In this document: piece after piece, positions 1-48,750 of the stretch
How positions within the stretch are numbered: the first letter of the stretch is position 1
How the letters are laid out: each line of letters starts with the position of its first letter
From: an uncultured Gemmatimonadales bacterium
GTDB lineage: Bacteria > Gemmatimonadota > Gemmatimonadetes > Longimicrobiales > RSA9
Length of the DNA stretch: 64,000 bases
Direction of reading: 5' to 3'
Assembly (NCBI GenBank): GCA_963741945.1
Contig: CAVUKA010000003.1
Location: forward strand, 668,522 to 732,521
Translations under genes and position numbers: made by a program
The notes under the pieces: model-generated
What the model was told of the DNA's origin: nothing
The model's input: the letters and a program-made list of their open reading frames with translations, nothing else
Databases searched by the model: none

Positions 1-2300
1 TCCCTCGCCCGCGACAGCGCCTGCACGATCTCCGACGACGAGTCCGTCCGGTACAGCGTGACTTTCAGCGCCACCACGTCCGGATCCTCCGCCGCCTCAC
101 GGACGAAGCGCTCCGCGCTGCTGGTGAAGTCGTCATCGGGGAAGTAGACCAGGCGGTCGGCCTCCCGCAGCAGGTCGAACACGGGACGCCGCGGCTCGAG
201 CGGGACGGAGCGGTGCATGGGCGGGAAGCGGACGTCGTCGCCGATCTCCATTTCCGCGACCTCCTCCAGCGCGGCCAGGTCGATGAGCCCGTCCACCACG
301 TACACGTCCTGCGGTCCCAGCCACCATGATTCGGTGGGCGACTCGTAGCGCAGCTCGTTCACGATCATCTGCCGCAGCGAACGCGGCATGCGCGCGTCCA
401 CCTCCAGCCGCACCGGCGAGCGGAACGGGCGACGAGCCACGTCCTCCTCCACCGCCTGCAGCACATCCCCCACCAGCGTCTCCTCCAGTTGCGTGCGCGC
501 GCTCCGCGTCACGCGGAAGAGGTGCGCGCTCTGCACCGTGAGCCCGGAGTAGAGGTCCGGGAGGCGCGCCACCAGCAGCTCCTCCAGCGGGACCAGCCGG
601 CGGCCGTCCTCCAGCGGCAGAAAGCGCGGAAGCTCGCCCGGCAGCTCCACGGCCGTGAAGTGCGCCCGGTCCGAGCCCGGGAGCCGCACCACGGCCCCGA
701 TCGCCGGACGCAGGTTCCGCATGTGCGGGAACGGATGGCTCGCGTCGGCGGCCATCGGCGTGAGCACCACTTCCGCGTCGGTGGCGTAGCGCTCCAGCAG
801 GTACGCGCGGTCCTCCTCGCCCAGCTCCCGCCAGCGCAGGATCCGCACACCCCGCTCCGCCAGCGCGGGGAGAAGCCGCCGCTGCAGCAGTCGCTGCGCC
901 CTCGCCGCCACCTGCCGTGCGCGGATGCCGATCAGGTCCAGCTGCTCCCGCGCGCTCAGACCGTCCATGGTCCGCCGGTTGCCGGGCGATGCGGCCTCCT
1001 CCTTGAACCCGGCCACACGGGTCATGAAGAAGTCGTCCTGCCGACTGCCGAACATGGACAGGAATCGCACCCGCTCGAGGAGCGGCGTATCGCCGGACTC
1101 GGCGAACGCGAGGATGCGCTCGTCGAAGCTCACACGGCTCAGCTCCGCGTTCAGCAGGTGCGCCGGCGGGACATCCTTTCCGGGCGCCGCCTCGGGCAGC
1201 GGGACCGGCGAGAGCGCGAGCTCCAGCGCTTCCGGGCCCGCATCCGCCTCTCCGAGCTCCGCCGCCCCATCGCCGCTCAGCAGGTCGGAGCGCGCGGCCA
1301 CCTCGAGCGCCGCGAGGGTGCGCGCGCCGCGCAGCGCGGCGCTCCCCACCGCCCCCAGCGCTTCCGCCAGCGGCACCCAGACAAGCTCCCCGTCCGCCGT
1401 GTCCGGCTGTACCTCATCCGTGGCCCACACCTCGAGCGCCGGCCGACCGGGTCCGCCGGGGTTCGTGCCCAGGAGCCGCACGCGCGCGCCCGCAGCCGCA
1501 AGCACTTTCGAGACGAGCCGCCGGGCGGCGGTCTCTCCGCTGCCGTCTCCGAACGGGATGCGCAGCCGCCCGCCATCGCGGAGCAGGGCGATGCGGCCAT
1601 GGGCGTGGGCGACGATCGCCAGCTCCCGCGCGGCCCGAACCTCCCGCTCGAGCGCCTCGATCTCGGCATCATCGAGGAGGTCCCGGGCGCGAGTGGCGGG
1701 ATCGGAGAGCGTGATCCGGACCCCGGGCTCGCGCTCGAGCGATGTCACCAGCGCTTCCACGTCCGCGTCCACGGCCGCGGTCACCACGATCTCCCAGAGC
1801 GTTCCCGACAGGTCGTTCCTCCGCACGGTCAGCGCGTCGTAGGAGAGGGTGAGCGCCTGCCCGGAGCCGGGAGCGCGGCCCGAGAGGGAAACATGCCTCA
1901 GCCGGCACAGCGTCTCCACCTCGAACGCCTGCTCCAGGCGCGCGGGATCGATGAGCCCGCGAAGCAGCTCCGCGGCCTCGGAATCGCCGTGAAACACGCT
2001 CCCGGCATCGCCCGGCTCGACGTCCGACTCCGCGCTCCGCGCCGCTCCTTCGCCATCGCTCGCGCTCCGGATGTCCACGCGCAGCGTACGCCGCCCGTCC
2101 GCGTGGTGCCGCAGCCGCACGGCCGCCGGCTTGAGCCCCAGCTCTCCGCCGGCGGTGTCGTAATACACGTCCCGGAACACCTCGATGGAGCGGCCCTCCT
2201 CACGCCCGGGGACCGGGAGCGGCCGTACGGCCAGGCCATCGAGGAGCTCGCCGCTCGGGACCTGGAAGCGGATCGTCCGCCGCCCTCCCGCCGACCTCAC
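1..2300 (-). CDS. ppk: Polyphosphate kinase 1 (PPK1) with a ~380-aa N-terminal extension containing a CYTH-like (triphosphate-tunnel) domain; the C-terminus lies beyond the window start
   Basis: Absent from the ORF track because this frame has no stop inside the window. Hand translation of the minus strand gives HLLNAELSRVSFDERILAFAESGDTPLLERVRFLSMFGSRQDDFFMT (~1160-1020) and FVREAAEDPDVVALKVTLYRTDSSSEIVQAL (~100-1), both PPK1 signatures. Around 2180-1750 it reads IEVFRDVYYDTAGGELGLKPAAVRLRHHADGRRTLRVDI ... LSYDALTVRRNDLSGTLWEIVV, which are CYTH-type strands. GTG at 2300 overlaps the upstream TGA (GTGA). Confidence 0.85.
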   Translation of the reverse strand, partial: MRSAGGRRTIRFQVPSGELLDGLAVRPLPVPGREEGRSIEVFRDVYYDTAGGELGLKPAAVRLRHHADGRRTLRVDIRSASDGEGAARSAESDVEPGDAGSVFHGDSEAAELLRGLIDPARLEQAFEVETLCRLRHVSLSGRAPGSGQALTLSYDALTVRRNDLSGTLWEIVVTAAVDADVEALVTSLEREPGVRITLSDPATRARDLLDDAEIEALEREVRAARELAIVAHAHGRIALLRDGGRLRIPFGDGSGETAARRLVSKVLAAAGARVRLLGTNPGGPGRPALEVWATDEVQPDTADGELVWVPLAEALGAVGSAALRGARTLAALEVAARSDLLSGDGAAELGEADAGPEALELALSPVPLPEAAPGKDVPPAHLLNAELSRVSFDERILAFAESGDTPLLERVRFLSMFGSRQDDFFMTRVAGFKEEAASPGNRRTMDGLSAREQLDLIGIRARQVAARAQRLLQRRLLPALAERGVRILRWRELGEEDRAYLLERYATDAEVVLTPMAADASHPFPHMRNLRPAIGAVVRLPGSDRAHFTAVELPGELPRFLPLEDGRRLVPLEELLVARLPDLYSGLTVQSAHLFRVTRSARTQLEETLVGDVLQAVEEDVARRPFRSPVRLEVDARMPRSLRQMIVNELRYESPTESWWLGPQDVYVVDGLIDLAALEEVAEMEIGDDVRFPPMHRSVPLEPRRPVFDLLREADRLVYFPDDDFTSSAERFVREAAEDPDVVALKVTLYRTDSSSEIVQALSRAR

Positions 2301-4902: not shown

Positions 4903-7900
4903 TCACCAGTTCCCCTGGAACCCGAACGTGATCGTCCGGGCCAGCGGATAGGCGTAGAAGTCGGTCCCGAGCGTCGCGGCCGCGGCGCCGGAGCCGCCGT
5001 AGTTGTTCTCCGGGGCGTAGCCGGAATAATCCGTCCACGTCTTCAGGTTCTTGCCCGACACGAAGAACCGGCTGTTGCTCGCCCGGATCAGGTTGTTGAT
5101 GGCGTCCGGCACCTTCACGCCGAGCGTGACCTCGCCGAGACGTACGTAGGACGCGTCCTCGAGGTAGCGGCTGGACTCGACCCACGCGCCGGTCGAGCCG
5201 TACCAGCTCGGGCTCGGAGCGGTGCCGTCCGGGTTGTCCGGCGTCCAGTAGTTCTCCACGTGGACCTTGAACTTGTTGTCCAGGAAGTAGCCGCCATCAT
5301 CGGAGTACTCGCGCATGGCGTTGTAGATCTTCGCGCCCTGGCTGAAGTCGAAGAACGCCATCAGGTCGAACGCGCCATACGAGAACGTGTTGCGGATCCC
5401 GCCGTAGTAATCCGGGTGCGGGCTGCCCACGATCATGCGGTCGTCGGAGCCGGGGAAGGTGGTCCAGACGATGTCGCCGTTGGCGTCGTACTGCACGTTG
5501 CCGTCGGCATCCAGGTCCACGTACTTCGCCACGCCCGTCTCCCGGTCCACGCCGATGTACTTGGGCGTGTAGAAGACACCGATCGGCTGTCCGACCTCGA
5601 CCCAGTTGATGAACCCGGAGGGGAACGGCTCGTCCTTGTAGAGCGCGGTCACCTTGTTCCGGTTGCGGGTCAGGTTGAGCTCCGTGGTCCACTCGAACCC
5701 GTTGGCCCGGTTCGGCCGGACGTTCACCGTGTTGAGGCTGAGCTCCCATCCCTCGTTCCGGATCCCGCCCACGTTGGCGAGCACGGACGTGAAGCCGCTG
5801 GTGGCGGTGACCGGCCGGTTGAGCAGCAGGTCGTTCGTGTTCTTCCAGTAGCGCTCGACCACGAAGCCGAGTCGGTCATTGAAGAAGCTGAGGTCGAGCC
5901 CCAGGTTCGTCTCGCTGGTGGTCTCCCACTTCAGGTCGTTGTTGGCCAGGTTCGCCGGCGCGGTGCCCGGGATCGGTCCGTAGTTGGCCGTGCCGTAGAG
6001 GCCCAGATAGCGGAAGTCGCCGATGGCCTCGTTCCCCGTCTCGCCCCAGCTGGCGCGGAGCTTCATGTCGCTGATGAAGTCCAGCCCCTGCATGAACGGC
6101 TCGGCGCTGACTACCCAAGCCGCGGACGCGGCCCGGAAGACGCCGAACTTGTTGTTCTCACCGAAGCGCGACGAGCCGTCGGCCCGGATGCTGGCGTTGA
6201 GGATGTAGCGGTCGTTGTAGACGTAATTGGCGCGACCGAAGAACGACATGAGGTTGTGCGACCACCCGCTCCCGTCGTAGCCGGCCACGTCCGCCCCGTT
6301 GCCCGGCCAGTTGAGCTCCGGGCTCGTGAAGCTTTCCGTTCGGATGAAGCTCTCCTCGCGCTTGTCCCGTTCCGTCGACGCGCCCGCCGTCACCGACAGC
6401 TCGTGCGCACCGAAGTACTTGTTGCCGGTCAGGTAGCCTTCGAGCAGGTACTTGTTCCCGGATGCGTTGGCCACGCGCGAGACGCCGCCCACGCCCGACC
6501 CGTAGGTCAGCGGGGTCAGCGGTGAGTTCCAGCGATGCTCGCGCAGGTTGAGGATGTCGAAACCTGCGCGGCCCGTGGCCGTCAGCCAGCTGGTTGCCAC
6601 GTAGTTCGCGGTGAGGCTGCCGAAGGTCCGGTTCGTGAGGGCGTTCGTGAAGTCCTCCACGCCCACCGCCACCGGGTTCGAGTACGAGGCCCAGTCGCTC
6701 CAGGCGCCCGTCGCGGGGTCCTTCACCGGCACCCACGGCTCGTTGGCGATGGCGTTCGTGACCGGGCTGACGATGGAGTTGTCCGACTCGATCCGGTCAT
6801 TGTTCTCCCGGGACAGCGACAGGGACGTGCTGAAGCTCAGCTTGTCCGACGCCTGGAAGTCCAGGTTCGCCCGGCCGGAAGCCCGGTTGTACCCGGACCC
6901 GATGATGATCCCGGTCTGGTCGAAGTACGTGCCGGAGATGTAGTACTTGAACGCCTCGGTCCCGCCGCTCACGCTGAGCTGCGTGTTGCTGATCGGCGCG
7001 GTCCGCATGACTTCTTCCTGCCAGTCCGTATTGACGCTCGGGTCCACGCCGAACGAGTTCAGCTCGTCCTGGACGTCCGCCTCGGTGTAGCCGTCGTAGC
7101 GCATCCCGTCCGAGAAGTACTGGATCCACTCGGCCGTGCTCAGCATCGGGATCTTCTTCTGCGACTGCTGGAAGCCGCCCGACACGTTCACGCTCACCTG
7201 CGGCCGGCCGGCCGTCTGGGCGCCGCGCTTGGTCGTGATCATGATCACGCCGTTCGAGCCCCGCGAGCCGTAGATCGCTGCCGCGGCCGCGTCCTTCAGG
7301 ATGTCGATGGACTCGATGTCGTCGGGGTTCAGCCCCGTGATGGACGACAGGTCCTGGCCGCCCAGCCCCAGCTGGCCGAAGTCCTCGCGGAAGATCGGCA
7401 CGCCATCCACCACGTACAGCGGCTGGTTGCCCGCCGAGATCGACGAGCTGCCGCGCACGCGCACCGTGATTCCGTTGCCGGGGTTACCCGCGTTCTGGAT
7501 CACCTGTACGCCCGCGGCCTTGCCCTGCAGCGCGGCGTCGAGACTCGCCACCACGCGATTTTCGACGTCCTGCGTCTGGACCGTGCTGATGGCGCTGCTC
7601 ACTTCCCGCCGCGTCTGCTGCGCGTATCCGGTGGCCACCAGCTCCTCGAGCTGGATCGCCGTGACGCCCAGCTGGAAGTCCTCCGTGGCCGTGCCGCCCG
7701 CGGCGACCGTGATGGTGCGCGCCTGGGGGGAGTAGCCGATGTACTCCACGCGCACTTCCGCTCGACCGCTCGGCACCCGCGTGAGGAGGTACCGTCCATC
7801 GTTGTTCGTGATCGTTCCGATTCCCGTGCCTCGAATCATCACCTGAGCGCCGGAGATCGGCTCTCCGGTCTGCGCGTCGGTGACGGTGCCACGGATCGCG

Positions 7901-17961: not shown

Positions 17962-18486
17962 ATGTGTACGACCCCGTCCCGCGCCGCCTGCGCCGCCCTC
18001 CTGGTTGCTGCGGCGATTGCCGCTCCGCGCCCGGTCGTCGCCCAGGATGGCGGGCTCGCCCCCGGCGACGTCCCCGGCAGCGCCGTCGTCCAGACACTCG
18101 CCGGCGATTCCGTGGCCATCGCCGCCCTCACGCACGGCCGACCGGCCCTCGTGGAGTTCTGGGCGACGTGGTGCCCGATATGCCGCGCGCTCCAGCCGCG
18201 GATGGACTCCGCATTCGCCCGGGTCCGGGACCGCGTGGCGTTCGTCGTGGTGGCCGTGGGCGTGGCCCAGACCCGCGACCAGGTGCGCGCGTTCGTGGCG
18301 CGCCAGCCGCTCCCGGGAACCGTCGTGTGGGACGGCGCCGGTGAAGCCGTGCGCGCGTTCGACGCCCCGGGCACCGGCTACGTCGTCATCCTGGACGAGG
18401 CAGGGAAAGTAGTGTACGCCGGGACTGGCTCGGACCAGCACCTGCTCCGTGCGCTCCGCCGCGTCCTCGCCGACGGCGACGCCTGA
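17962..18486 (+). CDS. TlpA-like thiol:disulfide oxidoreductase (thioredoxin fold), secreted
   Basis: Starts at ATG 17962 within track ORF 16450..18486. It has a signal peptide AALLVAAAIAAPRPVVAQ, redox motif EFWATWCPICR, and the downstream block YVVILDEAGKVVY. Confidence 0.85.
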   Translation: MCTTPSRAACAALLVAAAIAAPRPVVAQDGGLAPGDVPGSAVVQTLAGDSVAIAALTHGRPALVEFWATWCPICRALQPRMDSAFARVRDRVAFVVVAVGVAQTRDQVRAFVARQPLPGTVVWDGAGEAVRAFDAPGTGYVVILDEAGKVVYAGTGSDQHLLRALRRVLADGDA

Positions 18487-18609
18487 CACCGGCGCAGGAC
18501 ACGACCGCGGGTGCCCCTGCGTATCGCCCGCCGAACTCTCTCCAGGTGGAGCGATCCCGCCGATCGACGCCCACACGTCCGGACTTCGGTCTGCGGTCCG
18601 GGCTCCGAC

Positions 18610-19215
18610 CTACGGCGCCGGCTCCGCCACCCGGTCGATGGCCTCCCCGAGCTTCGTGTACGCCGCCGGGTCGATCTCCCGGAACGGCGCGTCCACGTAG
18701 GCGACCTTTCCGTCCGGGCCGATGACGAACACCTCGCGGGCGCTCACGTGCGTCCCCGGCCGGTCGAACACGGCCCCGAACTTCGACGCGGCGACGAGCC
18801 CGGTGTCACTCACCATGAGGAACGGGAACTCGTCATCGCGGGCCCAGGAGGCCAAAGCGTCGATGGGGTCGGCACTGATCGCCATCAGGACCACGTTGCG
18901 GCCGCCGTTGAAGAGCTGCGCGTACTGATCACGGTACGCGTGCATTTGAACCGTTCAGCCCTTCGTCCTCGCCTTGAAGAAGAACGCCAGGACAACCGTC
19001 TTGCCGGGATAGTCACTCAGCGAAACCGGCTCCTCGAGGATGCCATAGCGCGTGGCGCCCGGGAGGGTGAAATTGGGGGCGTCGTCGCCCACCTTCAGCG
19101 GAGTAGTGCCCTGCGCCGCGGCGGGCGCCGGGCTCCCGGCCAGCGCGGCGAGGAGAGCCGCGGCCAGGGCAACGGTGCCGGCGAGGGGCAGGGTTCGGCC
19201 GTGGTTTCGTCGCAT
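18610..19215 (-). CDS. Peroxiredoxin (AhpE/BCP-like) with in-frame TGA at the peroxidatic Cys position; candidate selenoprotein (alternatively a pseudogene)
   Basis: Track ORFs 18955..19341 and 18610..18945 share one frame and are separated only by TGA (18957..18955) plus 3 codons. Readthrough gives GKTVVLAFFFKARTKG-U-TVQMHAYRDQYAQLF...FPFLMVSD...REVFVIGPDGKV. ATG 19215 is preceded by GGAGG, and a signal peptide (LAAALLAALAGSPAPAAAQ) is present. Confidence 0.7.
18919..18940 (-). promoter_or_regulatory. Candidate bacterial SECIS hairpin
   Basis: 14 nt 3' of the UGA: CGCGUAC-CGUGAUCA-GUACGCG, a perfect 7-bp stem with an 8-nt loop that has G at loop position 2. This was seen by eye; no covariance model was run. 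Confidence 0.4.
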
Positions 19216-19291
19216 GAAATGCCTCCGATGGGGGTACGGCTCCCAAGGTAGGCCAAGCGCGTCCCCGATGCACGCCAGCCGACTGTCGGGT

Positions 19292-19541
19292 TCTGTCACC
19301 GGGAACTGTTGGTCGCCAAGGCGCCGATCGGGGAAACGCACGCCATCCCCTGCTCACGGCCCCAACCGCCTGTCGCCCAACCGGTTCCGGTGCGGACCAT
19401 CGGCGTCCGTCGCGGCACGACGGTGGCTCGGACGGGGCGCCTGGATGACTCATCCGCGTATGCCGCCCCCACCCGGACCGCTCCTCCATGCGGCCCGGCT
19501 CTCCAGCTCTCGCATACCGACCAACAGTTCCTGGTGACAGA
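19292..19541 (+). repeat. 24-bp long-range inverted repeat enclosing 202 bp (structured RNA or MITE-like element)
   Basis: TCTGTCACCGGGAACTGTTGGTCG (19292..19315) versus CGACCAACAGTTCCTGGTGACAGA (19518..19541). 23 of 24 positions are complementary, and the single mismatch is G:T, which is a G-U pair only on the plus-strand transcript. Confidence 0.6.
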
Positions 19542-43342: not shown

Positions 43343-43474
43343 AGCGCGGCCCCGGTGGGCGGCGGAGTGCTGCGCCGGGGTGGTCGGTGCGCCACCCGCT
43401 TGCCCGCCGCCCCGGCCGCCGGTAGCGTTCGGGGCTCACGCACGACAACACGGGACGCACGGCGGGAGAAGCGG

Positions 43475-44092
43475 TTGGACGCGCTCACGGTACGGGGGCT
43501 GACCCGGAGCTTCGGTCCGCTCCGGGTGCTGGACGACATCGATTTCACGGTCCCGCGGGGCAGCGTGGCCGTGCTGCTGGGACCGAACGGGTCGGGCAAG
43601 ACCACGCTGCTGCGCTGTGTTGTGGGTGCGGAGCACCCGGACGCGGGGGAGGTGCACCTCGAAGGACACCGCATGGACGAGACGGATCCATGGGTCCGGG
43701 CTGCCGTGGCCGCGGTGCTGGACGACATGGATTTCTTCCCCGACCTTTCGGTGGTCGAGCACCTGGAGTTGCTGGCGCTTGCCCACGGCGGGGATCCTGC
43801 GGCCGTCGCGGGAGTGGTGACGGAGCTGGGTCTCGACCCGGCGCGGGATCAGCTGCCGGCGACGTTGTCCAGCGGCCAGCGTCGCCGGCTGGCGCTGGCC
43901 TCGTGCTTCGTCCGCCCTCGTCGCCTGCTCGTGCTGGACGAGCCCGAACAGCGCCTCGATGTGGGCGGCAGGGCGTGGCTGCGGGACCGGCTCCTCCGCG
44001 AGAAGGCCAGCGGCACGGCCGTGCTGATGGCGTCCCACGACCCCGAGCTCGTGGACGCCGTGGCCGATGTCCGGATCGAGCTGGGCGCGTGA
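43475..44092 (+). CDS. ABC transporter ATP-binding protein
   Basis: Walker A GPNGSGKTT, signature LSSGQRRR, Walker B LLVLDEPE, H-loop ASHD. TTG 43475 is preceded by GGGAGAA; the track start at 43355 adds an Arg-rich leader that is probably not real. Confidence 0.88.
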   Translation: MDALTVRGLTRSFGPLRVLDDIDFTVPRGSVAVLLGPNGSGKTTLLRCVVGAEHPDAGEVHLEGHRMDETDPWVRAAVAAVLDDMDFFPDLSVVEHLELLALAHGGDPAAVAGVVTELGLDPARDQLPATLSSGQRRRLALASCFVRPRRLLVLDEPEQRLDVGGRAWLRDRLLREKASGTAVLMASHDPELVDAVADVRIELGA

Positions 44093-45525
44093 GCGCCACG
44101 GCGCTGGACGCCGGGCGGATCCCCGCGCCTTCCACCTGGCGACGACGGCTCCGGCGCGCGCGTCGCACCCACCACCCTCGCTCCACCGGCGACCTCCTCA
44201 CGGACCTGTACATGCTGCTCTGGGTCCTGGTGGTGTACGGGGGCGCGCTGGTGTCCGTCGTGCGGGAGCACCTGCGCACTCCGGTGGGCGTTCCGGGTGT
44301 GGCGGTGGAGCGACTGTGGATTGCCAGCGCGGTGCTGCTGGCGGGCGCCGGCCTGACCTGGCGCGGCCTGCGCGCGGTGGGCCCCATCGTCGCCTCTCCG
44401 TCCGAGCAGTCGTGGGGCGTGGCCACGCCCATGGACCGGCGACGCTGGCTCCTGCCGCGCTTCCTGATCCTGCTGCTGGCCGGGCTGCTGGGCGGCGCGG
44501 CGGCCGCGGGGCTGGTGGTGGTGCTCGGGATGCAGGGCCACGGCTTCCGCGCGGCCCTGATCGCCGGCGGCGTCTGGGGGCTGGGAAGCGTCGCGGCCGC
44601 CGTGGCGGCGCAGGCGAGTGCACGACCGCGGGGCCATGGGCGCCGGCGCCGCCGGGTCGCGCTCGCCGGCCCGGTCCTGACGCTCGCCGGGGCCGCCGCC
44701 GCGGGCGCGGTGGTGGCGGCGCATTACGGCGGCCGCCTCCTCCCGCGACCGCCAGCCGCGCTCGTGCCGGGGCTCGTTGCCATGGGCGCCGTTTTCGCCA
44801 CCGTAGCTCTGGCCGCGGCCATTCTCGCGCTGCGGCGCATCGACCGCGCCGCCCTCGGCGCCGGCGCTGACATCGCGGCGGCCGCGCTCAGCGCCACCGC
44901 CTGGACCGATCCCACGCTCCTCACCCGTGTTCTCGAAGTCCGCCGCTGGCGACGCGTGGGCCGGGTGCGCAGCCGACACTTCCTCCCTGCCGTGCCCGGG
45001 CTGTCGCCCCGCGTGTGGGCCCTGCTGCAGGGCGATGCCCGGCGGGTGGCGAGGCGCCCGATGTCGCTCGTGGTGTGGGCCGCGCTGGGGCTGGCGCAGT
45101 ACGCCATCGCGGTGGTGGCGCCACCGGTGGCGGGCGTGGCCCACGTGATCGCCGCGTACGTGGCGGCGGGCCGCCTGACGAGCGGACTTCGCACCGTGGC
45201 CGGCTCGGCGGGGCTGCGGCGCTCGATCGGCGGCGGGGAGGCGGAGCTCCGGCTCGTGCACCTGGTCGTGCCCGCCGTGGGCACGGCCCTCTGGTGGGTC
45301 CTGACCTGGCCCGCCGGCGGGCCGCCACTGGGGTCCGCCGAAGTGTTCCTGGTCCTCGGCATCGTGGCGGCTGCGTACCGCTCCGCAACGCGTCCTCCCA
45401 TGCGGTATGGCGCGTCCACCATGGACTCCCCCGTGGGCCTCTTCCCCACGGACCTGCTGCTGCAGATCGCGCGAGGGCCGGATCTCCTGGGCGTGGTGCT
45501 GATCGTGCGACTGATCCTCCGTTGA
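44089..45525 (+). CDS. Polytopic membrane protein coupled to the ABC ATPase (DUF6297-like putative permease component)
   Basis: GTG 44089 overlaps the ATPase TGA (GTGA). It is about 478 aa with 10 or more hydrophobic segments and Arg-rich loops. The family name is from memory of actinobacterial ABC-adjacent proteins and was not searched. Confidence 0.65.
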   Translation: MSATALDAGRIPAPSTWRRRLRRARRTHHPRSTGDLLTDLYMLLWVLVVYGGALVSVVREHLRTPVGVPGVAVERLWIASAVLLAGAGLTWRGLRAVGPIVASPSEQSWGVATPMDRRRWLLPRFLILLLAGLLGGAAAAGLVVVLGMQGHGFRAALIAGGVWGLGSVAAAVAAQASARPRGHGRRRRRVALAGPVLTLAGAAAAGAVVAAHYGGRLLPRPPAALVPGLVAMGAVFATVALAAAILALRRIDRAALGAGADIAAAALSATAWTDPTLLTRVLEVRRWRRVGRVRSRHFLPAVPGLSPRVWALLQGDARRVARRPMSLVVWAALGLAQYAIAVVAPPVAGVAHVIAAYVAAGRLTSGLRTVAGSAGLRRSIGGGEAELRLVHLVVPAVGTALWWVLTWPAGGPPLGSAEVFLVLGIVAAAYRSATRPPMRYGASTMDSPVGLFPTDLLLQIARGPDLLGVVLIVRLILR

Positions 45526-45661
45526 GCGGACCGGGAGACCGCGACCGGAGAGACGGTGGCGGCGGACGCCGGGCATTGCCACGGCCCCGTGTCCCTCACC
45601 ACTCTACTTCCCGCAGCGTGCGCGGACCGGGCGCACCACGACTCTCGGCCGGAGGACGGAG

Positions 45662-46525
45662 ATGAGGAGGACGGGGGCCGCGTTTCTCGTGGCCGGCCTC
45701 GCGTGGATGGCCATCTCGGGATGCGACGATGGCACTTCACCCGGCAGCGACCTGATCGGGGAGTACACGGCCGTCGAAGTCGACGGGGGCTCGCTCCCGA
45801 CCCGGTGGCGCCCCGCGGTCGACCTGACCGGCGCCCTCCTCACCATCGGAGACGCCCCTACCCGGCAGTTCGCCATCGCGTATCTGCTCGCGGTGCACGA
45901 CACCACCCCACCCCCACCCCCGGACACCACGACGCCGCCCGACACCACCGGCTCGCCGCCGGACACGAGCGCGGCCAGCCCGGCGGAGGCGCGGCTCGCC
46001 CGTGCGCTCCGCGGGGCCGGGGCCCCCGCGGCCCCCGCTGACCGCATCACCACCGACACCTGCTTCGTCCACGGCAGCTGGAAGATGGAGGGCGGCTCGT
46101 TCGTGGTGCTGGACAGCACCATCGCTGTGGCGGGGAGCATGTGCGGTCCCGAGATCGCACTGTCCGAAGCGTCGGGCGCCATCGCCGCCGACGTGGACGC
46201 GACGGAAGAGGAGGGGGGACCCTACCACGCTCTCCGGTTCGAGCCCCGGCGAGTGGCGCAACTGGCGGCCTCGCCGGACTCGCTGCTCTTCGGCGCGCTC
46301 CAGCAGACCCGGACGTTCCACGTCCTGCTCACGGACCAGGCGGGCGTCGCCTACGACGCGCGCACCGAGCTCGGCCTCGCGCTCCAGGGCGCGCCCATCG
46401 TGGCGCTGGTGCAGAGCGGTGCCCCCGACTCGCTGTCGCTCATGTCCATCGGCACCGGGCGGGCGCAGCTGATCCTCTTCGGTGGAGCGCGCGCCGACAC
46501 CATCGGGATCACGGTGATCCAGTAG
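45662..46525 (+). CDS. Hypothetical lipoprotein with Pro/Thr-rich linker
   Basis: GGAGGACGGAG RBS, lipobox WMAISGC, linker TTPPPPPDTTTPPDTTGSPPDT, and a beta-rich C-terminal domain. Confidence 0.65.
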   Translation: MRRTGAAFLVAGLAWMAISGCDDGTSPGSDLIGEYTAVEVDGGSLPTRWRPAVDLTGALLTIGDAPTRQFAIAYLLAVHDTTPPPPPDTTTPPDTTGSPPDTSAASPAEARLARALRGAGAPAAPADRITTDTCFVHGSWKMEGGSFVVLDSTIAVAGSMCGPEIALSEASGAIAADVDATEEEGGPYHALRFEPRRVAQLAASPDSLLFGALQQTRTFHVLLTDQAGVAYDARTELGLALQGAPIVALVQSGAPDSLSLMSIGTGRAQLILFGGARADTIGITVIQ

Positions 46526-46602
46526 CGAGGCCACCCCCTTCCCACGCGTCCCGCGCCCCGCCATACTCCCCACGTTCACGCAACCGAATCAGGGCGAAGG
46601 TG

Positions 46603-47514
46603 ATGAAGCAGGCACGGACGATCGGTGGCGCCGCGGCGCTGCTGGCAATGGTGGTGGGAACGGCCAGCGCGGCCATGTGGGGAGCGACCGGTCACGAGAT
46701 CGTGGGCGAAGTGGCAGCGGCGGGGCTGCCCGGCGACATGCCCGCCTTCTTCCGGGACGCCGCGCCCCAGCTCCGCTGGCTCGACCCGGAGCCGGACCGG
46801 TGGCGCGACCGTCAGGCCACGGCGATGGACGAGGCGTTCAAGTACGACCACTTCATCGACCTGGAGAACGTCCCTGCCGCGGCGCTCGCGGCGCCCGACC
46901 GGTACACGTACCTGGAAGCGCTCTTCGCCGCGGGGCTGAAGAACCCGCAGCAGTCGGCCGGGTTCCTGCCCTTCCGCATCCTGGAGCTGCAGGAGCGGGT
47001 GACGAACGGCTTCGCCCGCTGGCGGCGAGCCGGTAGCGAGCAGGAGCGGCGCTGGATCGAGGCGAGGGTCATCAACGACGCCGGAATCCTCGGGCACTAC
47101 GTGGCCGACGGCTCCAACCCGCACCACACCACCATCCACTACAACGGCTGGGCCGAGGAGGCCCCGAACCCGCGGGGGTTCACCACGGCCCACGACATCC
47201 ACTGGCGCTTCGAGAGCCTGTTCGTGGACGCACACGTGAACGTCACGGACGTGGCCGCGGCGGTCCCGGCCGGCACGCACGTCGTGCCGGACGTGCGGCA
47301 GGGGATCATGGACTACCTCATGGCCACGCACGCGCAGGTGGTCCCGCTCTACGAGATCGAGCAGAACGTGGGCTTTCCCGGCGACTCCGCCACCGCCGCG
47401 CCGGCCGCGCAGGCGTTCGTCGTCGACCGCCTCGCCGCGGGCGCCGAGATGCTGCGCGCACTCTGGTACACGGCCTGGGTCGACAGCGACGCCGTGGCGA
47501 AGCGCCTCCGCTGA
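46603..47514 (+). CDS. S1/P1-family nuclease (phospholipase C/P1 nuclease fold), secreted
   Basis: The signal peptide is followed by WGATGHEIVG (family N-terminal WGxxGH motif), then GHYVADGSNPHHTT metal-ligand blocks. ATG 46603 lies inside track ORF 46141..47514. Confidence 0.78.
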   Translation: MKQARTIGGAAALLAMVVGTASAAMWGATGHEIVGEVAAAGLPGDMPAFFRDAAPQLRWLDPEPDRWRDRQATAMDEAFKYDHFIDLENVPAAALAAPDRYTYLEALFAAGLKNPQQSAGFLPFRILELQERVTNGFARWRRAGSEQERRWIEARVINDAGILGHYVADGSNPHHTTIHYNGWAEEAPNPRGFTTAHDIHWRFESLFVDAHVNVTDVAAAVPAGTHVVPDVRQGIMDYLMATHAQVVPLYEIEQNVGFPGDSATAAPAAQAFVVDRLAAGAEMLRALWYTAWVDSDAVAKRLR

Positions 47515-47520
47515 GGGGAC

Positions 47521-48750
47521 ATGGACATGATCGATCGCATACGCGCGCAGTTCCCCGCCCTGGCCCGGCAGGTGAACGGGCACCCCGTCGCCTATTTCGA
47601 CGGCCCGGGCGGCACACAGGTGCCCGCGGCCGTGGCGGACGCGGTGCGCTCCTACCTGCTGGAGCACAACGCTAACGAAGGGTGGAACTATCCCACCAGT
47701 CAGGAGACCGACGCGCTGCTGTCGGAGGGGCGCGCGGCCATGGCCGACCTTTTCGGCGCGCTGCCTGACGAGATCGCGTTCGGTCAGAACATGACCACGC
47801 TCACGCTGCGGCTGTCACGGGCGCTCGGGCGCGAGCTGGAGCCGGGCGACCGGGTGGTGGTGACCGAGCTGGACCACCACGCCAACGTGGACCCGTGGAA
47901 AGCGCTGGCGGATGAGCGCGGGGCCGAGATCCGGGTGGTGCGCATGAATCCCGGCTCCGGCACGCTGGACCTGGACGACCTCCACAGCGCCCTGGCCGAG
48001 CCCACGAGCCTCGTCGCCATCGGGGCCGCATCGAACGCGCTGGGCACCATCTCCAATGTGGCCGAGGCGGCCGCCCTCGCGCACGACGCCGGCGCCACGG
48101 TGTTCGTGGACGCCGTCCATTACGCGCCCCACGAGCTGGTGGACGTCCACGCCCTCGGTGCTGACTTCCTGGCGGCCTCCCCGTACAAGTTCTACGGCCC
48201 CCACCTGGGCGTCCTCTGGGGGCCCGGCGAGGCCATGGAGCGGCTGCGTCTCCCCCGCGTGGCATCCGCGCCGGACCACGCGCCGGAGCGGTTCGAGACG
48301 GGGACCATCAGCTTCGAGGCCGTGGCCGGCGCCACCGCGGCCGTGGATTTCCTCGCCTCATTCGGTGATGACGCCGCGGCCGGCGACAACCGCCGCGCCC
48401 GTCTGCGGCGGGCCTACGAAGCGCTGAAGGAGCGTGGAGAGGGTCTGTTCCGGGCACTGTGGGACGGGATGAACGAGATCCCCGGCGTCGCCACCTACGG
48501 CCCGCCTCCGGGCGCCCGCCGCACGCCCACACTGGGCTTCGCCATTGCGGACCGGGATCCCCGGGATGCCGTGGCCGCTTACGCAGCGGAAGGGATCTTC
48601 GTCACGCACGGCGACTTCTACGCCACCACGGTCATCCAGCGCCTCGGACGCGGGGGGCCCGGGATCCTGCGCGCGGGGTGCGTCGCGTACACGTCGGACG
48701 AGGAAGTCCAGCGGCTCGTGGACGCCACGGCGAGGATCGCCGCCGGCTGA
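47521..48750 (+). CDS. Class V aminotransferase / cysteine desulfurase-like protein
   Basis: IRAQFPAL...VAYFDGPGGTQVP N-terminus and 409-aa fold-type I PLP enzyme layout (..SPYKFYGPHLGVLWG..). Confidence 0.85.
   Translation: MDMIDRIRAQFPALARQVNGHPVAYFDGPGGTQVPAAVADAVRSYLLEHNANEGWNYPTSQETDALLSEGRAAMADLFGALPDEIAFGQNMTTLTLRLSRALGRELEPGDRVVVTELDHHANVDPWKALADERGAEIRVVRMNPGSGTLDLDDLHSALAEPTSLVAIGAASNALGTISNVAEAAALAHDAGATVFVDAVHYAPHELVDVHALGADFLAASPYKFYGPHLGVLWGPGEAMERLRLPRVASAPDHAPERFETGTISFEAVAGATAAVDFLASFGDDAAAGDNRRARLRRAYEALKERGEGLFRALWDGMNEIPGVATYGPPPGARRTPTLGFAIADRDPRDAVAAYAAEGIFVTHGDFYATTVIQRLGRGGPGILRAGCVAYTSDEEVQRLVDATARIAAG

Follow-up and report, generated by a model that had tools for sequence, protein, structure and literature searches.

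Peroxiredoxins in which selenocysteine (Sec) takes the place of the peroxidatic Cys (PF00578/COG1225, motif TxxU) are an experimentally established class of bacterial selenoproteins (PMC13188914, PMC1088965). Their prototype is PrxU of Eubacterium acidaminophilum (Sohling et al. 2001, as described in PMC13188914), and 43 Sec-peroxiredoxin genes were found in the Sargasso Sea dataset (PMC1088965). Gemmatimonadota were not named in the selenoproteome papers that we checked for this phylum. Here, we analyzed a 64,000-nt stretch of DNA (hereafter the window) from an uncultured Gemmatimonadales bacterium (GenBank assembly GCA_963741945.1, contig CAVUKA010000003.1, positions 668,522 to 732,521), in which an original prediction, made from the sequence alone, had noted an in-frame TGA in a secreted peroxiredoxin and placed the gene in this class, whose members are commonly mis-annotated as two fragments. 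Our results indicate with high confidence that the two annotated fragments are one gene (18610..19215, minus strand) for a Sec-containing, probably exported peroxiredoxin of the BCP/PrxQ-like branch, and a genuine selenoprotein gene is by far the most probable reading of the locus. The split into two fragments was seen both in the open reading frame (ORF) track of the window and in the gene calls of its closest relative.

Members of the known class have an AhpC/TSA fold, Sec for the peroxidatic Cys in T-x-x-U, a selenocysteine insertion sequence (SECIS) element inside the ORF directly downstream of the UGA, and widespread Cys homologues, and the window gene is predicted to resemble them in each of these features. 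It belongs to a family that differs from the class in having F/Y-xxx-T-xx-U instead of PxxxTxxU in 189 of 201 genes, a predicted signal peptide, and no other Cys. By analogy, the closest functional precedent is the ScsB -> TlpA -> PprX pathway of Caulobacter crescentus (Cho et al. 2012, PMC3322552), which combines an exported BCP/PrxQ-type peroxiredoxin, a TlpA-like reductant and a DsbD-family transporter; in our case, the three gene types are neighbors in most relatives. PprX uses Cys within the canonical PXXXTXXC motif and also has a resolving Cys, whereas the window protein, with its predicted Sec, lacks both a resolving residue and the motif Pro. The gene is an addition to a well-known class and not a new principle. 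What is new is an unannotated, lineage-wide Gemmatimonadota subfamily that usually has Phe or Tyr for the motif Pro and usually lies beside genes for a TlpA-like thioredoxin and CcdA.

A peroxiredoxin gene interrupted by one in-frame TGA

The ORFs 18955..19341 and 18610..18945, both on the minus strand, had been reported to share one frame with only a TGA and three codons between them, and rechecking the coordinates in the sequence gave the same result: the TGA (18957..18955) is followed by ACG GTT CAA and then by the ATG at which the second ORF begins. Read from the ATG at 19215 to the TAG stop at 18612..18610, the complete gene has 201 codons including U87, and the TGA at codon 87 is the sole interruption of the frame (context ...FFFKARTKG-U-TVQMHAYRDQ...). 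A Shine-Dalgarno sequence GGAGG is located at 19222..19226, 6 nt upstream of the ATG, in line with the good ribosome-binding site that had been claimed. Consensus scans for promoters and terminators found none.

The read-through product of 201 aa matched Pfam AhpC-TSA (PF00578) with 94.9 bits and E=4.5e-27 (cut-off 26), and the match covered residues 42–173, spanning the TGA. Redoxin was matched as well. The active-site motif F80-K-A-R-T84-K-G-U87 (18955..18978) corresponds to PxxxTxxC with Phe for Pro, and T84, U87 and R160 align with the catalytic Thr, Cys and Arg seen both in homologues and in BCP structures. The catalytic Arg codon (18736..18738, R160 in ...SAREVFVIGPDG...) was near-invariant in the homologue alignment, and an Arg at +85 from Sec was found in 100% of 175 genes. 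The TGA (18955..18957), which the original prediction had placed at the peroxidatic Cys of x3-T-x2-Cys, is thus aligned with that Cys in homologues and structures alike and is the predicted codon of Sec at residue 87.

The best matches among solved structures were the archaeal BCP/PrxQ proteins 2ywn, 2cx3, 3hjp and 3drn and the Mycobacterium tuberculosis AhpE 1xvw (E 1e-13 to 4e-06, at low identity). In the structure alignment, the peroxidatic Cys occupied the TGA column, the motif Pro corresponded to Phe80, and the second Cys of the BCP motif CxxxxC, at +5 in the archaeal proteins, corresponded to a His. These 1-Cys BCP/AhpE peroxiredoxins have the conserved Thr and Arg in common with the window protein, and AhpE also has a single redox residue; they differ in being cytoplasmic, in using Cys, and in keeping the Pro. 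The Sec-peroxiredoxin protein did not reach the cut-off of any NCBIfam model, and for the PrxU equivalog (NF040737) it scored 46.8 bits against a cut-off of 270. Judged from these comparisons, the protein is homologous to PrxU and not a PrxU orthologue, and it is placed in the BCP/PrxQ-like branch, with BCP/PrxQ as the nearest relatives. This narrows the AhpE/BCP-like assignment that had been made for the read-through product.

The TGA is conserved among related Gemmatimonadota

To compare the window gene with its relatives, we scanned one genome per species with a protein profile whose peptide patterns were located downstream of the codon, so that a TGA was not required. The best 80 loci belonged to Gemmatimonadales, Longimicrobiales and other Gemmatimonadota (~79 assemblies), and TGA was present at the codon in every one (80/80). 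Metagenomes were searched with a DNA pattern that required the TGA and the flanking conserved amino acids and left the third codon positions and the hairpin free, which gave at least 120 contigs. In all, 201 TGA-type genes were available for the family counts. In the 188 genes whose 3' ends were complete, the frame ran on for 105–122 codons past the TGA, with a median of 115, and mean pairwise identity of the TGA-type genes was ~63%. In a codon alignment of 175 distinct genes, synonymous variation was of the normal coding type both before and after the TGA.

The protein search recovered mostly full-length homologues of ~195 aa with the canonical motif FFP[RK]ARTxGC, and 99 full-length, more distant homologues had Cys in the TGA column. 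Orthologues with Cys and without the hairpin had been named as the outcome that would point to a nonsense mutation or a sequencing error; instead, the closest relatives had TGA (80/80), not Cys, and kept the hairpin, while Cys was found in the distant homologues. Such a pattern has the form of a classic Sec/Cys pair. Nearest-neighbor purity of the Sec and Cys forms was 174/175. A crude neighbor-joining tree gave no clean Sec/Cys split (best split 150 U + 40 C), and we make no claim for a single origin of the Sec form.

The closest relative was found through a second 111-aa fragment, 87% identical, on an 889-kb contig of an uncultured Gemmatimonadales metagenome-assembled genome (MAG) (P0022, locus L001). 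Gene order and the TGA were kept at this locus, and the hairpin was identical at the nucleotide level, with synonymous changes in the two codons directly 5' of it. Independent contigs from another run also spanned the TGA and the hairpin and had no difference there.

These data bear on two explanations that do not involve Sec. The first is that the gene is broken by a nonsense mutation, pseudogenization or an assembly error, and that the hairpin is coincidental. Gene callers do split the gene, and the statistics of the hairpin in the single sequence are weak, as such a case would have it. A private nonsense mutation, a pseudogene and an assembly error are nevertheless excluded because the TGA recurs in ~200 independent contigs with a conserved frame. 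The related species genomes (80/80) and at least 120 metagenome contigs have it ahead of an intact frame that is under purifying selection, the contigs from another run agreed at the TGA, the hairpin covaries (see below), and the ~63% mean identity rules out a single contaminating sequence. We consider a broken gene to have almost no probability.

The second explanation is that translation stops at the UGA and yields a short exported peptide, while the C-terminal 111 aa are made separately from the ATG at 18945 or not at all, the hairpin serving translational coupling or mRNA stability. An ATG is indeed present four codons past the TGA, and both pieces were called as ORFs. However, the Met is a conserved internal residue (QM) that Cys-type homologues have too, the ATG at 18945 has no Shine-Dalgarno sequence of its own, and the C-terminal piece has neither a signal peptide nor the active-site strand and helix, so that neither half would be a viable thioredoxin fold. 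The interrupting stop was always TGA and never TAA or TAG, which a mere split would not need. A split product is thus highly improbable, though slightly less so than a broken gene.

Some further observations were made on the relatives. Public catalogues contained rare full-length versions with L, W, R or C at the active site, all one nucleotide from TGA, and one with V. Among them, F/Y-type proteins had L, W, V or R at this position (P0006, P0011, P0028, P0083, P0101). The sole odd-residue case for which DNA was available had TTA (L002, 332..334) on a contig with 1.6x coverage. An error, a point mutation or the translation of TGA in an alternative code probably accounts for these catalogue versions.

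In two loci, a Cys-type paralogue with the motif FFPKARTSG-C-TAQM... lay in tandem with a Sec-type gene: in L083, the TGC at ~6616 was ~550 nt upstream of the Sec-type gene with its TGA at 7173..7175, and L159 had the same tandem (TGC ~697, TGA 1251..1253). The Sec-type genes of both tandems belonged to a minority subclade with the motif Pro, and the tandems may be a snapshot of duplication followed by Cys-to-Sec conversion. Two TGA-type loci (L016 and L072) were found in one MAG (JACQVG01, NC_groundwater_1457), which may mean that some genomes have two Sec-peroxiredoxin copies or that the bin was mixed.

The terminal stops of 188 related Sec-peroxiredoxin genes were TGA in 38, TAG in 100 and TAA in 50; confident neighbor ORFs at the same loci had 95 TGA, 52 TAG and 6 TAA. 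The scarcity of terminal TGA may reflect avoidance of a second UGA or an expression-level effect, the genes being related and the counts not independent. Of the sampled 31-mers of window positions 18400..19400, ~6% were also present in each of many unrelated metagenomes from soil, sediment and freshwater, which probably share only the ultra-conserved ~40-nt stretch around the SECIS element.

A conserved hairpin with the geometry of a bacterial SECIS element

A perfect 7-bp hairpin 14 nt downstream of the TGA, with G at loop position 2 and within the distance of a SECIS element, had also been proposed, and both its coordinates and its fold were reproduced. This candidate bacterial SECIS (bSECIS) element, CGCGUAC-CGUGAUCA-GUACGCG (18919..18940, minus strand), has its 5' arm at 18940..18934, an 8-nt loop CGUGAUCA at 18933..18926, and its 3' arm at 18925..18919. 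It begins 14 nt past the TGA and had a free energy of -9.4 kcal/mol when folded alone, with a UGA-to-loop spacing of 21 nt and G-U at loop positions 2–3.

The published bSECIS model describes an apical loop of 3–9 nt on a stem of 4–16 bp, a UGA-to-loop distance of 16–37 nt, a minimum free energy (MFE) of at most -7.5 kcal/mol, and a G within the first two nucleotides of the loop, after which a G or U is usual (PMC13188914). All 185 distinct sequences of the family agreed with the four criteria of this model. They had a loop of 8 nt (CGUGAUCA in 177), a stem of 6–7 bp, a spacing of 21 nt, and MFE values from -7.8 to -10.3 kcal/mol. Like the E. coli fdhF/fdnG-type SECIS elements and the bSECISearch consensus (PMC13188914), the hairpin is an in-ORF stem-loop at a fixed distance directly past the UGA, and its small apical loop has G and then U toward the 5' side. 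Its primary sequence is unrelated to those of the fdhF/fdnG type, its 8-nt loop is near-invariant, and its stem doubles as the codons of A-Y-R-D-Q-Y-A.

Conservation of the hairpin in relatives, which had been proposed as a check, was found in three forms: the structure was retained, synonymous changes were suppressed, and paired bases covaried. Codons +6 to +11 were near-fixed among 190 distinct sequences (GCG 188, TAC 190, CGT 188, GAT 184, CAG 190, TAC 189). Entropy given the amino acid was 0–0.19 bits in these six hairpin codons, compared with ~1.2–1.8 bits at conserved four-fold sites elsewhere, and CGT and GAT are minor among the Arg and Asp codons in the rest of the gene. Five distinct Cys-type genes had CGC or CGG at the hairpin Arg and never CGT (0/5), and they had CAG where the TGA type favors CAA.

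The closing pair of the stem is formed by the wobble base of codon +5 and the wobble base of the Ala codon at +12, and it covaried among 146 distinct 48-nt segments (C-G 54, U-A 41, G-C 28, A-U 1). Two inner pairs each had one G-C to A-U double change. Paired cells amounted to 97.8%, compared with 91.5 ± 0.4% in shuffled alignments, and changes on both sides of a pair were found in 72 cells, compared with 20.8 ± 6.9 in shuffles; for neither measure did any of 500 shuffles reach the observed value, and all slid registers collapsed. The same loop-plus-stem motif was searched for after other TGAs, where only weak 5–6-bp chance stems were found.

Weighing the selenoprotein reading

Several observations weigh against reading this locus as a selenoprotein gene. 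The hairpin is unexceptional when judged on the single sequence: the 66-nt fold had a z-score of -1.28, and 22 of the 1129 TGA triplets in the window (2%) were followed by a perfect hairpin of at least 7 bp with SECIS geometry. The window hairpin on its own is only suggestive, and its significance comes from the comparative evidence. No Rfam SECIS family matched the window at gathering thresholds or positions 18860..18990 at E<=10, so that of the two SECIS searches proposed, the published pattern fitted and the covariance models gave no match. Since many bacterial SECIS elements are mutually dissimilar (PMC13188914), a missing Rfam match is not unusual. Part of the stem arises from the peptide itself, with A-Y...Y-A encoded as GCG-TAC...TAC-GCG, and one Cys-type gene (L213) can form the stem; because of this partly inherent stem potential, the SECIS element seems to have been built on a pre-existing hairpin. 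The PxxxTxxC Pro has been called absolutely conserved in peroxiredoxins (PMC3322552, PMC13188914), and it is Phe80 in the window protein, a deviation within an otherwise clear member of the family.

Genes of the Sec-decoding machinery were also searched for. We used ARAGORN on the window and 216 loci, tblastn with the E. coli SelA, SelB and SelD proteins, and Pfam on 40 ORFs of the window, and found no tRNA-Sec, selA, selB or selD in the 64-kb window of the 892-kb contig or in ~1.2 Mb of flanks from related Gemmatimonadota. For a genome of several Mb, these null results are uninformative. A 96-nt "tRNA-???" with a four-base anticodon, reported by ARAGORN ~1.6 kb from the Sec-peroxiredoxin gene of another locus (L010, 5057..5152, minus strand), was rejected as a false positive: Rfam had neither tRNA nor tRNA-Sec there, and the sequence was GC-rich and protein-coding-like. 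We also searched the flanks for other selenoprotein genes as same-frame, coding-like ORF pairs split by TGA, and all 26 candidates were ordinary adjacent genes.

A study of hadal-sediment MAGs reported selA (K01042) and selD (K01008) at a frequency of 0.8636 in Gemmatimonadota, equal to 19/22 MAGs (PMC8938466, supplementary file 13, sheet Fig. 3a), so that the Sec trait is common in the phylum. In the literature on Sec use in Gemmatimonadota, we found no main-text statement, the phylum-level selA and selD frequencies being given in that one supplementary table. From the conserved and evidently translated TGA we infer that the genome of the window is likely to encode Sec machinery.

The failure to find Sec machinery in the sequences searched, the lack of a match to curated SECIS models, and the rare full-length catalogue versions with W, L, R or C would all be compatible with selenium-independent recoding, in which the UGA is read as a standard amino acid (e.g. 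Trp or Cys, by a near-cognate tRNA) and the hairpin is a generic read-through stimulator or pausing element and not a SelB-binding SECIS element. However, the codon specifies the peroxidatic residue, and at that site a thiol peroxidase can function with no residue other than Cys or Sec. The SelB-type model agrees with the geometry, the spacing and the G-U of the loop in 185/185 sequences, and the phylum commonly has selA and selD. A single nucleotide separates most of the odd residues from TGA, and the TTA case at 1.6x coverage fits an error or a mutation. Recoding without selenium is therefore improbable, although it is the least improbable of the alternatives to a Sec-encoding gene.

Active site, predicted export and a proposed mechanism

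At the position of the motif Pro, the 201 TGA-type genes had F in 128, Y in 61, P in 9, I in 2 and V in 1, whereas the motif Pro was present in 99 of 100 Cys-type relatives, the remaining one (P0063) having Phe. The mature domains of TGA-type proteins had no Cys in any of 170 sequences, and those of Cys-type relatives had exactly one (100/100). By its sequence, the clade would thus consist of 1-Cys/1-Sec peroxiredoxins with no resolving Cys. As there is no other Cys, the oxidized selenenic acid would have to be reduced by an external thiol.

The N-terminus of the window protein is predicted to be a signal peptide for the Sec translocon (residues 1–34, 19114..19215, MRRNHGRTLPLAGTVALAAALLAALAGSPAPAAA then QG). 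It starts with a basic MRRNHGR, continues with a hydrophobic core and an A-x-A site, and ends in AAA followed by QG, as assessed with a hydrophobicity heuristic. Signal-like N-termini were found in 96% of 170 members (12-aa window, Kyte-Doolittle >=1.6), typically ending in AxA-Q.

We propose a mechanism in which codon 87 (UGA) would be decoded as Sec during translation, with the mRNA hairpin (7-bp stem, loop CGUGAUCA) acting as a bacterial SECIS element that recruits SelB-GTP-Sec-tRNA(Sec) to the ribosome. The pre-protein would then pass through the Sec translocon, and the signal peptide would be cut after AAA34. In the cell envelope, the U87 selenolate, placed by T84 and R160, may reduce H2O2 or organic hydroperoxides and be oxidized to a selenenic acid. 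Recycling would be carried out by an external thiol, most likely that of the neighboring exported TlpA-like CxxC protein, which in turn may receive electrons from cytoplasmic thioredoxin through a membrane transporter of the CcdA/DsbD type.

The aromatic residue in place of Pro could also mark a distinct active site adapted to Sec, that is, a 1-Sec peroxidase in the oxidizing envelope of a largely aerobic phylum, an idea that we regard as tentative and rather doubtful. If it were true, it would run counter to the generalization that aerobic bacteria rarely retain selenoproteins (2026 review), and the near-invariant 8-nt loop would define the SelB recognition motif of the phylum. The pairs of Sec-type (Phe/Tyr) and Cys-type (Pro) relatives amount to a natural experiment in the adaptation of peroxiredoxin active sites to selenium.

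For annotation, the gene is missed by the curated models of NCBIfam and Rfam, and some public catalogues list spurious full-length versions whose active-site residue is W, L, R or V. A single model that covers the protein and its SECIS element would correct the gene calls of at least ~79 genome assemblies, along with those of many metagenome contigs. Gemmatimonadota are a widespread phylum of soils and sediments. The gene would place a conserved selenoprotein and, by implication, active Sec decoding in this phylum, and it points to an envelope peroxide defense that depends on selenium supply.

Neighboring genes and window context

The gene is convergent with an exported-looking, TlpA-like thioredoxin-fold gene with a WCPIC motif (17962..18486, plus strand), which matched Pfam Redoxin, AhpC-TSA and Thioredoxin; its matches to the NCBIfam models ResA, StoA and TlpA were all under their cut-offs. 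This neighbor had been suggested as a candidate reductant, and the gene itself was confirmed. Synteny supports the partnership: a convergent TlpA-like homologue was located at most 1.5 kb downstream in 97/136 TGA-type loci. A CcdA/DsbD_TM gene lay next to the TlpA-like gene in 71/104 relatives, and TlpA-like and CcdA genes were also found beside Cys-type genes. The transporter of the relatives is of the short CcdA/DsbD_TM type, compared with ScsB in Caulobacter, and the 64-kb window has no CcdA/DsbD_TM gene. At the closest relative's locus (L001), no CcdA gene was present within 10 kb on either side of the gene, and the genes that come next there encode an M20 peptidase and a creatininase.

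The window has a G+C content of 70.6% and no tRNA. Its chromosomal genes include those for SusD/TonB receptors, a Na/Ca exchanger, FeoAB, M28/M20/M16/S9 peptidases, creatininase, Tex, PBP1A, a Suf-like cluster and glycosyltransferases. The region 43355..48750 is possibly a Suf-type Fe-S assembly region, with an ABC ATPase gene at 43355..44092 and, at 47521..48750, a gene for a class-V aminotransferase of the cysteine desulfurase/selenocysteine lyase family.

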